Positions 13,147-57,348 of a stretch of 59,563 nucleotides of DNA are shown one piece after another. Source of the DNA: Candidatus Micrarchaeota archaeon (GTDB lineage: Archaea; Micrarchaeota; Micrarchaeia; Norongarragalinales; SBBD01); NCBI GenBank assembly GCA_043806595.1, contig JAZDGU010000050.1, forward strand, positions 1-59,563. The letters are read 5' to 3'. Position numbers and translations under genes: made by a program. The notes beneath the pieces are model-generated. The model ran no database searches, had not been told where the DNA came from, and saw only the letters and a program-made list of their open reading frames with translations. Numbering within the stretch: position 1 is the first letter of the stretch; every line of letters starts with the position of its first letter.

Positions 13147-13881
13147 CTAGCCGTCGCAGACCGACATCAGGCGCTTAGTCGCGTTGACGATCGGGTTGTG
13201 GTCGCCTTGCTCCTCGCGGACGTCCACCAAGTTCCTGGCCATGAACAGGAACACCGCATACTTGTCCTTGCAGAGGAAAGCCGAGGTGTTGGACGTCGGG
13301 AAGTTGGAGGTGTAGCGCGAGTCCAGCGTGAGGTAGTAGGTGCGGTTACCGTTTTCGTGGTGCGTGCCGTAGAAGTCCCCGGGGTCCTGCGAGTAGTAGC
13401 GTGTCTGGATGCCGAACGAGCCGGTCTTGTACATGCGGATGCCGTTCAGCGTGAACGGCGCCTGGAACACGACTTCCCCGTAAAAGCCAGTAGGCGAGTT
13501 GTCCCTATCATAATCCGAGGGGGTCAGTATGAACTCCCCGTGGCCGCCGCCACTCCACTCGCTGAGGAACTCGGTTGCAACCGAATCGATTTTGGGCTGC
13601 AATTCATACAACTCCATGGAAGCGTTGAACTTGGGTGCGGCGGTTGGAGTGGTCGTGATGAAGGCCGGAGGAGTCGCTTCTTCCGTGGGCTCGGGGGTCA
13701 CATCGGCCGTCGGCTCCACCGTCGGAGCCTCTGTCGGCGCCACGGTCGGCTCCGGCGTGGGCGTCGCGGCCTGCGTAGGAGCGGCGGTGGGCTGCGGCAT
13801 CGCAGCGGGCGGCGCCTGCGTGCACCCGAAGGAAAGCAAGGCGAACAGCACGAGGGCTGCGGCAATCAAACGTACATCCAT
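13147..13881 (-). CDS. Hypothetical lipoprotein with Pro/Thr-rich linker
   Basis: Internal ATG 13881 gives MDVRLIAAALVLFALLSFGC (lipobox-like), then a (A/E)PT-rich linker and a globular domain. A TATA (CTTAAATA on minus) lies upstream. Confidence 0.5.
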   Translation of the reverse strand: MDVRLIAAALVLFALLSFGCTQAPPAAMPQPTAAPTQAATPTPEPTVAPTEAPTVEPTADVTPEPTEEATPPAFITTTPTAAPKFNASMELYELQPKIDSVATEFLSEWSGGGHGEFILTPSDYDRDNSPTGFYGEVVFQAPFTLNGIRMYKTGSFGIQTRYYSQDPGDFYGTHHENGNRTYYLTLDSRYTSNFPTSNTSAFLCKDKYAVFLFMARNLVDVREEQGDHNPIVNATKRLMSVCDG

Positions 13882-13938
13882 AGTTAATCCCCCCTCAAAT
13901 CTTTCGCGAAAAGGGTATTTAAGCAGTTCGGAGAGCAT

Positions 13939-14000
13939 GGGAGCGAGAGTTGAACTCGCCTCTGCTGCTCCCTGCCTCCGCCGTCCGGAGGTCTGCAGGC
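13939..14000 (-). repeat. Partial tRNA-Cys copy (anticodon loop, intron, T-arm and start of 3' acceptor)
   Basis: Matches 14999..15061 of the complete tRNA-Cys. The first 39 nt have 1 mismatch and the last 12 nt are identical, but the central 11-12 nt of the intron are completely different. It lacks the 5' acceptor and D-arm. Confidence 0.8.
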
Positions 14001-14003
14001 GGC

Positions 14004-14017
14004 GTGCCCCCTAAAAT
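14004..14017. repeat. Inverted-repeat arm GTGCCCCCTAAAAT at the left end of the Fic cassette
   Basis: Reverse complement of the AATTAGGGGGCAC pair at 14911-14945 (11 nt shared). A weaker second copy, GGACCCTAAAAC, is at 14024-14035. Confidence 0.6.
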
Positions 14018-14041
14018 CGCGGTGGACCCTAAAACTGCCGG

Positions 14042-14905
14042 CTATAGGAATTCCGTGCACTGGCCGGCGTAAACCGTGAAGAGGTATTCCACGAACGGCT
14101 TCTCTCTTTTCGAGTAATCCACTTTCCTGAGAACAAGGTAATAAAGCACTTTTTCCGCGTCAAAAATGTTCAGAAGGGGGTAGCCGTTCTTGAGCAGGAC
14201 GAAATTCATGAGCAACCTTGAAATCCTGCCGTTGCCGTCCCTGAACGGGTGCACCCTGACGAACTTCAGGTGGACGAGGGCGGCGAGCTCAAACGGGTGG
14301 AGGACCTTTTTGGCGGATTCATGCCATTTGAAAAAATCGGCCATCCTTCCCGGCACTTCCCCGTGAACCGGTGGAAAATAACTGCCGACACGGACGTTCA
14401 CATCCCGGTATCGCCCCGCATCCGGCATGACGCCCTTCAGCTCTATTTCATGAAGCCTCAGAACCAGTCTCTCGTCCAATTCGCCGCCATAGCCGAAGAG
14501 GAAGTCGATGCACGCCTTCATGTTGACTGCTTCGACGACGTCCCTCTTCCTTGCCTTCGGCGGAGTCCTCCCCTTGAGGACGGAATCGGTCTCGTCGTAG
14601 GTCAGCGTATTCCCCTCAATCGCGTTGGTATTGAAAATGAAGCTGACGAGGCGCTCGCGCTCCTCCCGCCAAAGCGACCGTCCAATCTCGAATTTCTTGG
14701 CGTAACCGGATTTTATGGCGTCGACAACCCGGACTTGCTGGCCACTGAGGAACGACCGCAGTCGCTTTCTTTCCCCCCCGCCAGCGCGCGGTTTCGTGCC
14801 GAGGTATTTCCTGACCTTCTTCCACTTGCCCCTGCCGGCCCGCTTTGATTCGGTCAGATAATAATAGTCATGCCCCGAGATGACCTTCTTCTCGATGTAC
14901 GCCAT
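14042..14905 (-). CDS. Fic/DOC family protein (AMPylase-type, with internal inhibitory-helix motif)
   Basis: Internal ATG 14905 (MAYIEKKVISGHDYYYL...). Fic motif HPFRDGNGRISR. An upstream TNAIEGN matches the (S/T)xxxE(G/N) autoinhibition motif. A spot-counted 60-nt line gives about 40% GC, well below the neighbours. The track ORF extension to 15139 runs through the tRNA-Cys gene. Confidence 0.85.
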   Translation of the reverse strand: MAYIEKKVISGHDYYYLTESKRAGRGKWKKVRKYLGTKPRAGGGERKRLRSFLSGQQVRVVDAIKSGYAKKFEIGRSLWREERERLVSFIFNTNAIEGNTLTYDETDSVLKGRTPPKARKRDVVEAVNMKACIDFLFGYGGELDERLVLRLHEIELKGVMPDAGRYRDVNVRVGSYFPPVHGEVPGRMADFFKWHESAKKVLHPFELAALVHLKFVRVHPFRDGNGRISRLLMNFVLLKNGYPLLNIFDAEKVLYYLVLRKVDYSKREKPFVEYLFTVYAGQCTEFL

Positions 14906-14910
14906 GGAAC

Positions 14911-14945
14911 AATTAGGGGGCACACAGTTAATAATTAGGGGGCAC
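14911..14945. repeat. Two direct copies of AATTAGGGGGCAC (14911-14923, 14933-14945) between the Fic start and tRNA-Cys
   Basis: Exact 13-mers 22 nt apart, inverted relative to 14004-14017. They overlap the likely Fic TATA (TAATTATTAA on minus). Confidence 0.6.
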
Positions 14946-14994
14946 GCAAAAATCCGGCCCGAATGCAAATCCTGCAAGCCGATGGACGACGGAG

Positions 14995-15089
14995 AGCGGG
15001 GAGCGAGAGTTGAACTCGCCTCTGCTGCTCTCTGCCTGCGCAGTTGCACAGGTCTGCAGGCAGCCGCATAGCCGATCTGCCATCCCCGC
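14995..15089 (-). tRNA. tRNA-Cys(GCA) with 24-nt intron at the canonical 37/38 position
   Basis: GCGGGGA-UG-GCAG-AUCGGCU-AUGC-G-GCUGC-CUGCAG[ACCUGUGCAACUGCGCAGGCAGAG]A-GCAGC-AGAG-GCGAG-UUCAACU-CUCGC-UCCCCGC-U. It has the U73 discriminator typical of tRNA-Cys. Confidence 0.8.
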
Positions 15090-56612: not shown

Positions 56613-56732
56613 TGCAGGGGGAGGGATTCGAACCCTCGAAGCCCTACGGCACAGGATTTCACAGCCCGGCGCGCCGCATGCGCACCCCGGCGTTTAAGTC
56701 CCGCCCCTTTGACCCAGCTCGGGTACCCCTGC
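56613..56732 (-). tRNA. tRNA-Leu(UAA) with 35-nt intron at 37/38 and long variable arm
   Basis: GCAGGGG-UA-CCCGAGCUGGGUCAAAGGG-G-CGGGA-CUUAAA[35 nt]A-UCCUG-UGCCGUAGGGCUUC-GAGGG-UUCGAAU-CCCUC-CCCCUGC-A. Confidence 0.8.
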
Positions 56733-57196: not shown

Positions 57197-57217
57197 GCCT
57201 CCGTAGCTCAGGAGTAG
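57197..57217 (+). repeat. Copy 2 of the tRNA-Thr 5' end (GCCTCCGTAGCTCAGGAGTAG, 21 nt)
   Basis: Identical to 57277..57297. It is followed by AT-rich sequence with an 8-bp palindromic hairpin (CTTTTCTT/AAGAAAAG). Confidence 0.75.
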
Positions 57218-57276: not shown

Positions 57277-57348
57277 GCCTCCGTAGCTCAGGAGTAGAGC
57301 GTTTCCTTGGTAAGGAAAAGGTCACGGGTGCGATTCCCGTCGGGGGCT
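57277..57348 (+). tRNA. tRNA-Thr(GGU), no intron
   Basis: GCCUCCG-UA-GCUC-AGGAGUA-GAGC-G-UUUCC-UUGGUAA-GGAAA-AGGUC-ACGGG-UGCGAUU-CCCGU-CGGGGGC-U. Confidence 0.9.

Follow-up and report, generated by a model that had tools for sequence, protein, structure and literature searches.

A one-gene Fic cassette that may have integrated at the anticodon loop of an archaeal tRNA-Cys gene

How does a gene come to stand between a complete tRNA gene and a displaced fragment of that same tRNA gene, with no integrase between the two? The question is raised by contig JAZDGU010000050.1 of a Candidatus Micrarchaeota archaeon from a groundwater community (GenBank assembly GCA_043806595.1), of which positions 1 to 59,563 of the forward strand were analysed (59,563 nucleotides (nt); "the window" in what follows). 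In it, a gene for a Fic protein separates an intron-containing tRNA-Cys gene from a partial copy of that gene's 3' part. An earlier reading made from the letters alone (the sequence-only reading) had taken the arrangement for a remnant or minimal integrative cassette whose attachment (att) site spans a tRNA intron. The answer that we favour, with moderate confidence, runs along the same line: a Fic cassette, probably self-repressed, was integrated at the anticodon loop of tRNA-Cys by a recombinase acting in trans. The features on which the argument turns are these:

15089..14995, minus strand: functional tRNA-Cys(GCA), called by ARAGORN with introns allowed; exon 1 at 15089..15054, intron at 15053..15030, exon 2 at 15029..14995
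15063..14989, minus strand: proximal repeat copy (attL-like); anticodon arm, intron, 3' exon and 8-nt trailer
14988..14946, minus strand: spacer, 43 nt between the tRNA trailer and the outer upstream site, from the upstream flanks of the window and of loci L001, L002, L003, L006, L010 and L011
14945..14935, minus strand: distal upstream site GTGCCCCCTAA, on the side of the TATA box where the transcription factor B recognition element (BRE) lies; left end of the conserved cassette
14934..14924, minus strand: TATA-like box TTATTAACTGT, between the two upstream sites, its centre ~29 nt before the ATG
14923..14913, minus strand: proximal upstream site GTGCCCCCTAA, between TATA and start, 7 nt before the ATG
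14905..14042, minus strand: Fic gene, 287 amino acids (aa), the sole open reading frame (ORF) between the repeat copies
14022..14032, plus strand: inner downstream site GTGGACCCTAA, in opposite orientation to the two upstream sites
14004..14014, plus strand: outer downstream site GTGCCCCCTAA; right end of the conserved cassette
14003..13929, minus strand: distal partial tRNA-Cys copy (attR-like); anticodon loop, 23-nt intron variant, 3' exon and 8-nt trailer

The complete tRNA-Cys gene with its 24-nt intron had been proposed from the letters, and ARAGORN, run with introns allowed, agrees: the spliced product is a clean 71-nt tRNA with U73 and a cloverleaf displaying the GCA anticodon. (A technical note: the default setting of ARAGORN returns only "tRNA-???" here, and Rfam does not detect the gene at its gathering threshold.) The intron, ACCUGUGCAACUGCGCAGGCAGAG, lies at position 37/38. 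Folded whole, the precursor gives a cloverleaf whose anticodon arm is extended and whose intron forms a hairpin (minimum free energy -47.2 kcal/mol, z -2.5). Reading the sequence adds that C32-C35 pair with GCAG near the 3' end of the intron, making a CUGC:GCAG central helix, and that both splice sites fall in AG^A bulges: a bulge-helix-bulge-like motif.

Beyond the Fic gene the 3' part of this tRNA gene recurs. The partial copy had been seen correctly, its extent had not: in place of 62 nt, the imperfect direct repeat measures 75 nt (gaps allowed), running from the 3' strand of the anticodon-stem start to 8 nt beyond the tRNA end, with a core of 39 nt at 97% identity (self-BLAST, E 3e-12). 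It is the strongest repeat in the window, where self-BLAST finds just one further significant repeat. Where the copies derive from exons they agree base for base, over stretches of 32 nt and 12 nt. The centres of the introns differ (GUGCAACUGCGC versus CCGGACGGCGG), each forming a hairpin, just as the sequence-only reading had it; folding, together with a reading of the sequence, shows that both also keep the CUGC:GCAG central helix of the bulge-helix-bulge, the hairpin stem of the partial copy being CCUCCG/CGGAGG. The partial copy, which abuts the outer downstream Fic site, has no 5' half, and its acceptor strand is damaged and reads TCCCATGC; it is therefore not a functional tRNA gene, and ARAGORN, a spurious chimera aside, calls no tRNA in it.

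What lies between the copies is a unit in its own right. Homolog loci (numbered L001 and so on) were collected from assemblies, from a motif scan of GTDB species genomes and from 80 metagenome contigs. In seven of them (the window, L001, L002, L003, L006, L010 and L011; proteins 69-75% identical) the layout is common: GTGCCCCCTAA, a TATA-like box, GTGCCCCCTAA, 5-10 nt, the Fic gene, TTAGGGTCCAC, 6-7 nt, TTAGGGGGCAC. The seven neighbourhoods are unrelated (ApbE; AlaRS/tRNA-Val/tRNA-Glu; tRNA-Trp; others); similarity stops at the outer sites, and the flanks beyond have nothing to do with one another. To judge from these comparisons, 14004-14945 is a complete one-gene cassette, a conserved and sharply bounded unit of ~960 bp. 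"Remnant or minimal cassette" is thus half right: minimal it is, and a complete unit that recurs with Fic only is not a remnant. The spacer of 43 nt has no second copy in the window and is not conserved in other cassettes; presumably it is element-borne DNA that was carried beside the att copy.

The inverted arms noted around the gene are real. Exact GTGCCCCCTAA occurs three times in the window, always flanking Fic and accompanied by the one variant GTGGACCCTAA, and not once in 100 shuffles; the outer sites form a perfect inverted repeat of 13 nt (14002-14014 with 14935-14947). The distal upstream site keeps its position in all homologs of at least 52% identity, the GTGGACCCTAA-type variant of the inner downstream site is itself conserved in all close homologs, and A/T-rich TATA-like boxes, TTTATATA and TTTAAATA for example, stand at the same place in homologs. 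Nor do the arms occur at random elsewhere, an outcome that the sequence-only reading had named as damaging to itself: across the homolog loci the exact 11-mer is found at Fic flanks only, three unrelated bacterial matches aside. A scan of GTDB species genomes for the double site returned three Micrarchaeota Fic loci, together with an Actinomadura genome and a Verrucomicrobia metagenome-assembled genome (MAG) without Fic.

Is there a relative in which the tRNA-Cys gene stands uninterrupted? The rhomboid gene that adjoins tRNA-Cys has few relatives. The nearest relative found, L091 (rhomboid 62%, peroxiredoxin 83%, glutamine synthetase (GS) 73% identical), has the order GS, rhomboid, tRNA-Cys, peroxiredoxin, with no Fic gene and no partial copy, and the last base of its tRNA-Cys abuts the peroxiredoxin stop codon. 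The exons of that tRNA-Cys are identical to those in the window; the intron, of 39 nt, is different. In L092 and L093 (rhomboid 51%), rhomboid is again followed by tRNA-Cys, with an intron of ~50 nt, and there is no Fic. Looking for empty sites in relatives has thus produced three tRNA-Cys genes without Fic, among which L091, by its gene order, looks like the empty site, and the notion of an integrative cassette with an att region spanning the tRNA intron gains by it. Compared with these three loci the window has ~1.9 kb extra, consisting of Fic, the partial copy and one more gene:

13147..13881, minus strand: gene for a lipoprotein-like protein that has a PT-rich linker; its neighbours are the partial tRNA-Cys copy and peroxiredoxin

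A relative of the lipoprotein, 26% identical, is encoded two genes away in L092 and L093; the gene may stem from another, older insertion or be a resident gene that has moved. No third tRNA-Cys remnant is found beside the peroxiredoxin stop codon.

The two introns bear on where the copies came from. Their exons are identical while their stems carry compensated changes, and drift would not spare the exons of a pseudo-copy, so that an origin of the two copies in two lineages, in each of which the copy belonged to a working gene, is more likely; the sequence-only reading had suspected as much. The partial copy shares six outer stem pairs (CCUCCG/CGGAGG) with the L091 intron, the functional copy, whose intron has CCUGUGC/GCGCAGG, only three. 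From the stem pairs common to the partial copy and L091 we infer that the partial copy is the resident original. Alternatively, the crossover may have taken place in the 3' exon, in which case the intron of the partial copy would be the imported one.

The footprint is not peculiar to the window. In 65 non-redundant homolog loci the 300 nt upstream of the Fic start were compared with the 300 nt downstream of the stop; 248 segments of equal length, shifted by 1.5-3.3 kb within the same loci, served as controls. Direct repeats scoring at least 14 flank 19 of the 65 Fic cassettes, against 4 of the 248 controls (Fisher p = 4.7e-11; about 18-fold). In about 4 of the 19 the repeat is a duplicated promoter site and not a target repeat; in the remainder it is an imperfect copy of local sequence, 14-88 nt long. 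In L054, tRNA-Glu(UUC) is followed after 270 nt by Fic and then by a copy of the last 17 nt of the tRNA. In L010 the neighbour is an intron-containing tRNA-Trp on the opposite strand, the first 14 nt of which recur past Fic. In L075 and L089 the repeat is the 3' end of an upstream zinc-ribbon ORF, and L001, L002, L006 and L011 have an invariant boundary core, ATCAGNCCG.C, in common. L001 has three direct copies, each starting ATCAGTCCGTCCG, with the Fic cassette and a unit with a 77-aa ORF between them:

L001, 5929-5993: first copy
L001, 6998-7062: second copy
L001, 7681-7743: third copy

Read on the minus strand, the third copy forms the 3' end of a gene resembling a C/D-box small RNA (sRNA), in which C, D', C' and D boxes can be read; Rfam sR2 matches it below threshold (26 bits, E 0.06), and nothing else in Rfam matches the L001-type repeat. 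The start of the window repeat (..TGCAGACCT..) resembles the ATCAGNCCG.C core (in L011, ..ATCAGACCGT..), a similarity that is weak and was noticed post hoc.

The content between repeats is the same, Fic only, in at least 15 independent loci of different subfamilies. There is no integrase between the window repeats, Fic being the sole ORF (not all ORFs of the window were screened for recombinases), and all-against-all clustering of the ORFs within 3.5 kb of the 65 cassettes turned up no recurrent recombinase, only scattered PIN, RelE-like and HicB-like genes. None of the 15 or more Fic-only loci shows a larger element, such as the fuller, integrase-bearing kind that the sequence-only reading had thought might be met in relatives.

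In an AT-rich subgroup the footprint is multiplied. Behind the true tRNA-Glu gene, its 16-nt 3' end, AATCCCGACAGGAGCA, turns up again at intervals of 1.0-2.2 kb and always the same way round (in L054 at 3715, 4994, 6017 and 7354; L048, L051 and L042 are alike):

L054, 3715-7369: tRNA-Glu array
L048, 1532-5007: tRNA-Glu array
L051, 1774-5019: tRNA-Glu array
L042, 775-3929: tRNA-Glu array

The copies that are not part of the tRNA are preceded by a conserved GRGGGATTTATACCYGTGGGTGCYC (a conserved left arm of 25 nt) and followed by sequence like the tRNA trailer. The units between copies hold Fic, or a small ORF with a PIN_2 protein, or membrane and unknown ORFs, on either strand, and no integrase is found in the 8-9 kb of these four loci. 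To all appearance the arrays arose by serial integration of single-gene cassettes at one att site. That the repeats are terminators can be rejected: their orientation is constant in the arrays and that of the genes varies. Since the array cassettes without Fic also lack the Fic sites, those sites are unnecessary for array recombination, which favours reading them as operators.

What kind of protein does the cassette encode? It matches PF02661 (E 2.8e-21), with a TNAIEGN inhibitory motif at aa 93-99 and HPFRDGNGR at aa 219-227. The active-site motif, HPFRDGNGRISR at aa 219-230, is invariant in 35 homologs, and so are residues E97 and G98 of the inhibitory helix. In the AlphaFold model (pLDDT 90.9), aa 2-36 form an antiparallel sheet of three strands; after a disordered linker (39-46) come the inhibitory helix and the Fic core. 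The core is closest to human FICD/HYPE (PDB profile search, E 7e-45), and Foldseek aligns the model with 4u04 (TM-score 0.73, 32% identity, E 7e-15). With catalytic and auto-inhibitory residues all present and a FICD-like core, the protein is to be classed, by sequence and model, as a FICD-like class II Fic enzyme, a predicted AMPylase/deAMPylase. With FICD and SoFic it shares the HPFxDGNGRxxR active site, the N-terminal TxxxEGN inhibitory helix and the FICD-like fold; FICD, however, has TPR repeats where the window protein has a 38-aa three-stranded beta module, and SoFic, a single-gene anti-phage defence, has a C-terminal winged helix that the window protein lacks. The SoFic model of PADLOC correspondingly matches the core only (E 2.1e-28, profile positions 64-265 of 361): the winged-helix part finds no match, the protein stopping after the core, and it does not belong to SoFic. 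The putative cognate DNA sites that bracket the window gene are a further difference from both. Among Fic/Doc type II toxin-antitoxin systems (Phd-Doc, FicT-FicA, VbhT-VbhA), a toxin-type domain is likewise restrained by an inhibitory helix, putative operator repeats in the promoter would likewise allow autoregulation, and variable regions rich in toxin-antitoxin genes are likewise the setting; unlike them, the window protein has its antitoxin-like parts (putative DNA-binding domain and inhibitory helix) fused to the enzyme, and its gene has extra inverted sites downstream. No second ORF that could be a separate antitoxin gene is found inside the cassette.

The exact protein of the window has no database record. 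More than 1,300 homologs were found, in Micrarchaeota, Diapherotrites and other DPANN lineages; where a match bears a source name it is one of the first two, and identity among the best is 60-75%. IMG/VR holds relatives of the Fic domain alone, none with the N-terminal domain. The gene, which does stand alone between the copies, is "low-GC" (as the sequence-only reading described it) only mildly: with 55.1% G+C (GC) against 62% in the flanks, it ranks at the 14th percentile of window tiles. Across 59 loci, Fic GC lies below that of the 4-kb flanks in 48 (mean -3.1%).

The N-terminal 38 aa (the N-domain) are modelled with confidence as a three-stranded beta sheet, belong to no Pfam family and, modelled alone, have no significant fold match in the PDB by Foldseek (best E 0.77; PC4/Sub1-like at E >2). 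A resemblance to an integrase arm-binding fold is not supported by that search. Run against 1.8 billion representative proteins, a 42-aa profile of the domain matches 222. Apart from Fic proteins, there are among them PEP-utilizer-domain proteins, a protein like a class II aminoacyl-tRNA synthetase and P0262, the N-terminus of which matches at E 1.5e-4. P0262 (620 aa) is a bona fide IS1634-family transposase (NF033559, 289.6 bits; cutoff 100), and upstream of its gene come GCGGTGCCTAA, a TATA box and, directly before the ATG, the palindrome GTGGTGCCTAT/ATAGGCACCAC. Fusion to several different enzymes marks the N-domain as a portable module.

Distant Fic subfamilies keep the site-TATA-site layout with sites of their own: TGTAGTCCCTAA, TGTGCCCATAC, TGTAGACATA, ATGTGGTAACA and TGTAATTGTA, those of the AT-rich loci having been read by eye and not by automatic extraction. 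The TGTGCCCATAC subfamily has GTATGGGCAC after the stop codon, and some subfamilies have an inverted copy at that place. Each family of sites pairs with its own sequence type of N-domain. In view of the site layout, the N-domain types matched to subfamilies and the promoter sites of P0262, the N-domain is likely to bind DNA in a sequence-specific manner and the arms are likely to be operators for it, that is, for the Fic protein's own N-terminal domain. The placement is apt: the BRE side of the TATA box and the stretch between TATA and start are the standard positions of archaeal repressors, and a TATA box ~29 nt before the ATG implies a leaderless mRNA. The sequence-only reading had left it between recombinase and regulator sites; the regulator half survives, two sites bracketing the TATA box and travelling with Fic. 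That the arms are att sites, or belong to the tRNA att region, is rejected, the same four sites accompanying Fic everywhere, including places without a tRNA.

From these elements a course of events can be proposed. The cassette would have arrived as a circle bearing a tRNA-Cys-like segment of another lineage. A crossover with the resident tRNA-Cys in the fashion of Campbell, most likely within the 12 identical bases GCCTGCAGACCT of the anticodon loop and intron start, would then have inserted 14004-14945, the 43-nt spacer and one repeat copy. In the functional tRNA the resident 5' half would be joined to an intron and 3' half brought in by the cassette; their resident counterparts would have been displaced beyond Fic and be decaying there. 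The recombinase would have been supplied in trans, as a site-specific enzyme of the host or of another element; homologous recombination is less likely. Once in place, the cassette may look after its own expression: the N-domain would bind the 11-bp GTGCCCCCTAA-type sites, and occupancy of the two direct sites that bracket the TATA box would block loading of TFB/TBP and RNA polymerase, giving autorepression, which the inverted pair after the stop codon might strengthen by looping or as a roadblock. The whole could be described as a single-chain toxin-antitoxin-like or defence module: DNA-binding domain, inhibitory helix and Fic core in one polypeptide.

Some things count against this reading, and it is as well to set them down together. 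1) No recombinase has been identified for the cassette. 2) A repeat copy adjoins the cassette at one end only; at the other the 43-nt spacer intervenes. 3) The targets vary among close homologs, which is hard to square with one site-specific recombinase. 4) L091 is a different species and also lacks the lipoprotein gene at that position, so that the inserted block cannot be delimited from that comparison alone. 5) The likeness of the partial-copy intron to that of L091 comes down to three base pairs. 6) Three public runs contain the locus only in Logan contigs of 2-4x, broken at the repeat, with neither empty-site nor circular joints at that depth. 7) Fic GC follows that of the host genome over a range of 24-56% in the 59 loci; tracking the host so closely, at a mean offset of just -3%, the gene speaks of long residence rather than of frequent long-range transfer. 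8) The putative DNA-binding domain has, as said, no fold match in the PDB and no Pfam family.

Among other explanations, the one that survives best, unlikely as we take it to be, derives the cassette from an insertion sequence: a non-autonomous IS1634-type element in which Fic has replaced the DDE transposase, the end-binding N-domain has been kept, and a full IS1634-family transposase of matching specificity, acting in trans, makes long, variable direct repeats. There is a good deal to suggest it. Conservation ends exactly at inverted termini of 11-13 bp; the N-domain is homologous to that of an IS1634-family transposase with similar sites round its promoter; and for IS1634 and IS1549 the making of direct repeats of 8-514 bp is on record, though not how they arise (PMC2266710), those found here being variable likewise, at 14-88 nt. 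A target duplication should abut both termini, however, and unduplicated DNA separates one or both repeats from the termini, 43 nt of it in the window and 50-180 nt in L001, L010 and L011. The copies differ by replacement of a block, the intron stem, with the exons identical, unlike a fresh duplication (a simple target-site duplication is rejected outright on this block difference and on the unduplicated spacer), and PIN/VapBC-like and other cassettes without Fic-type sites share the same arrays. The cassette itself encodes no DDE transposase of the family, its protein matching Fic models only, and no IS1634 transposase is evident in the window, by a search that was not exhaustive.

Quite unlikely, to our mind, is that the cassette is what remains of a larger integrase-bearing element, a plasmid or provirus, that integrated at tRNA-Cys and decayed, leaving an addictive Fic module behind. 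Modules of toxin-antitoxin type are known to persist after the element that introduced them has gone, and such persistence would fit, as would attL/attR-like repeats without an integrase and a lipoprotein gene past the partial copy that is also extra with respect to L091. But decay should not leave the same thing again and again: Fic-only units recur at 15 or more independent loci, none with a larger element or a recurrent integrase, their ends are sharp and conserved, and in L054, L048, L051 and L042 each single-gene cassette has an att-like copy at its boundary.

Could there have been no movement at all, the 3' part of tRNA-Cys having simply been duplicated in tandem on the spot, with a resident Fic gene between the copies by chance? 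Operators would account for the arms without mobility, and a Fic GC that goes with the host's is just what a resident gene would show. This is improbable: syntenic tRNA-Cys genes in L091, L092 and L093 have nothing behind them, flanking repeats are some 18-fold enriched round Fic relative to controls, and the intron stems of the two copies differ while the exons do not.

That the Fic protein itself takes part in recombination, its N-domain holding arm-type sites in synapsis for a host recombinase or the protein performing strand transfer, is very improbable: the inverted site pairs would, in a circle, flank a tRNA-like core as in lambda attP, the domain is common to a transposase and the unit encodes no other protein, yet the core is orthodox and FICD-like with its inhibitory glutamate in place, Fic enzymes are not known to cut or join DNA, other array cassettes do without Fic and its sites, and Foldseek finds no match of the N-domain to integrase arm-binding domains.

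The preferred reading, integration of a Fic cassette at tRNA-Cys by a recombinase in trans, can be placed among known systems. The anticodon loop is said to have been described by Williams in 2002 as a classical sublocation for tRNA-integrating elements. With tRNA-targeting integrative elements (of the tyrosine-integrase type, pNOB8-type for example) the locus shares an insert between an intact tRNA and a displaced partial copy, a repeat extending from anticodon loop to 3' end, a functional gene rebuilt from resident and incoming parts, and differences between the introns of the copies that are tied to insertion. It differs in that the insert is ~1 kb and encodes no recombinase, and in that close relatives of the cassette have other targets, the 5' end of a tRNA-Trp and the 3' ends of an sRNA-like gene and of an ORF. 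For tRNA-Thr of Caldiarchaeum an insert of 1.8 kb that encodes a recombinase is on record, with a tRNA fragment on one side and a tRNA containing an intron on the other (PMC3293823). Archaeal integrons and CALIN arrays also exist, with cargo in which toxin-antitoxin genes are plentiful (Ghaly et al. 2022, PMC9668308). Similar to these are ~1-kb single-gene units without a recombinase of their own, toxin-antitoxin-type cargo with its own promoter and, in the tRNA-Glu subgroup, arrays of one orientation in which each cassette ends in a repeat like a recombination site; dissimilar are the repeats, which copy the 3' end of an RNA gene and are not demonstrated attC hairpins with R''/R' boxes, the want of any IntI in the loci examined, and the presence of a single cassette in the window. 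From IS1634/IS1549, which have a homologous N-terminal beta domain, similar sites round the transposase promoter and long variable direct repeats, the Fic cassette is set apart by having no DDE and by repeats that do not abut both termini and differ by block replacement.

Taken together with the arrays, these likenesses allow a wider reading, offered tentatively and as a possibility that we ourselves think doubtful in its full extent: a DPANN system of ~1-kb single-gene cassettes (Fic, PIN/VapBC-like, small membrane and unknown proteins) targeting the ends of small-RNA genes and some ORF 3' ends, accumulating in integron-like arrays of the same orientation and moved by a recombinase encoded outside the cassette, the Fic lineage having acquired an IS1634-type end-binding N-domain whose inverted sites would serve both mobility and repression. 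The targets named are tRNA-Cys, tRNA-Glu, tRNA-Trp, a C/D-box-like sRNA and ORF 3' ends. As a lead to a broader, undescribed DPANN cassette system the locus is credible.

A few further observations may be recorded. The trailers in the arrays read CTCCTGTTGGA(A/T) in some copies and, as the reverse complement, (A/T)TCCAACAGGAG in others; these copies of the trailer string were compared with those of L048 and L035:

L054, 4994-5040: trailer-string copy
L063, 784-830: trailer-string copy
L038, 4992-5040: trailer-string copy

By eye, the strings ATCCAAC and GTTGGAT of the tRNA-Glu-type repeats resemble integron R''/R' boxes. ATCAGTCCGTCC, GCCTGCAGACCT and AATCCCGACAGGAGCA are sequences inside candidate recombination sites. 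The double GTGCCCCCTAA of the Actinomadura genome lies inside a 20-nt tandem repeat, that of the Verrucomicrobia MAG occurs twice, and no Fic is near; both are probably unrelated short repeats:

L005, 7926-7956: double-site locus without Fic
L007, 219-251: double-site locus without Fic
L009, 645-677: double-site locus without Fic

The P0262 gene is found at L094 1-2151 (and in L095), with a 16-nt direct repeat, 81% identical, at 51-66 and 2041-2056 that may mark the ends of the IS1634 element. In P0134, P0154, P0225 and P0187 the N-domain heads either proteins of ~550 aa with a PEP-utilizer mobile domain at their end or a core like that of class II aminoacyl-tRNA synthetases. Elsewhere in the window, the first 21 nt (57277-57297) of tRNA-Thr(GGU), 57277-57348, recur exactly 80 nt upstream (57197-57217), and the 59 nt that separate the copies are A/T-rich and partly palindromic; the duplication could be the scar of an insertion or excision at the 5' end of a tRNA gene, similar to the duplicated 5' end of tRNA-Trp round the Fic cassette of L010. 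As to introns, the window also has tRNA-Leu(UAA) with one of 35 nt (56613-56732, minus strand); L091 (1665-1776) and L092 (6879-6999) have intron-bearing tRNA-Cys genes, and L010 (1157-1271) a tRNA-Trp with a 42-nt intron. The tRNA-Cys introns of three related genomes measure 24, 39 and ~50 nt between exons that are identical or nearly so. Introns in these tRNAs are common and fast-evolving.

If integration at tRNA-Cys is the right explanation, archaeal tRNA introns would be swappable wholesale by an integrating element, and the functional tRNA-Cys of this archaeon would be carrying an imported intron; there would then be a route to fast intron turnover among related genomes that have identical exons and unrelated introns. 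The architecture of the Fic protein is new and marks out a large family: a FICD-like enzyme joined to a putative DNA-binding domain of transposase type, with cognate sites round its own gene, and as such a compact archaeal example of a toxin-like or defence module that would regulate itself within one chain. And the footprint without an integrase, together with the tRNA-Glu arrays, suggests that cassettes are exchanged among episymbionts with tiny genomes.

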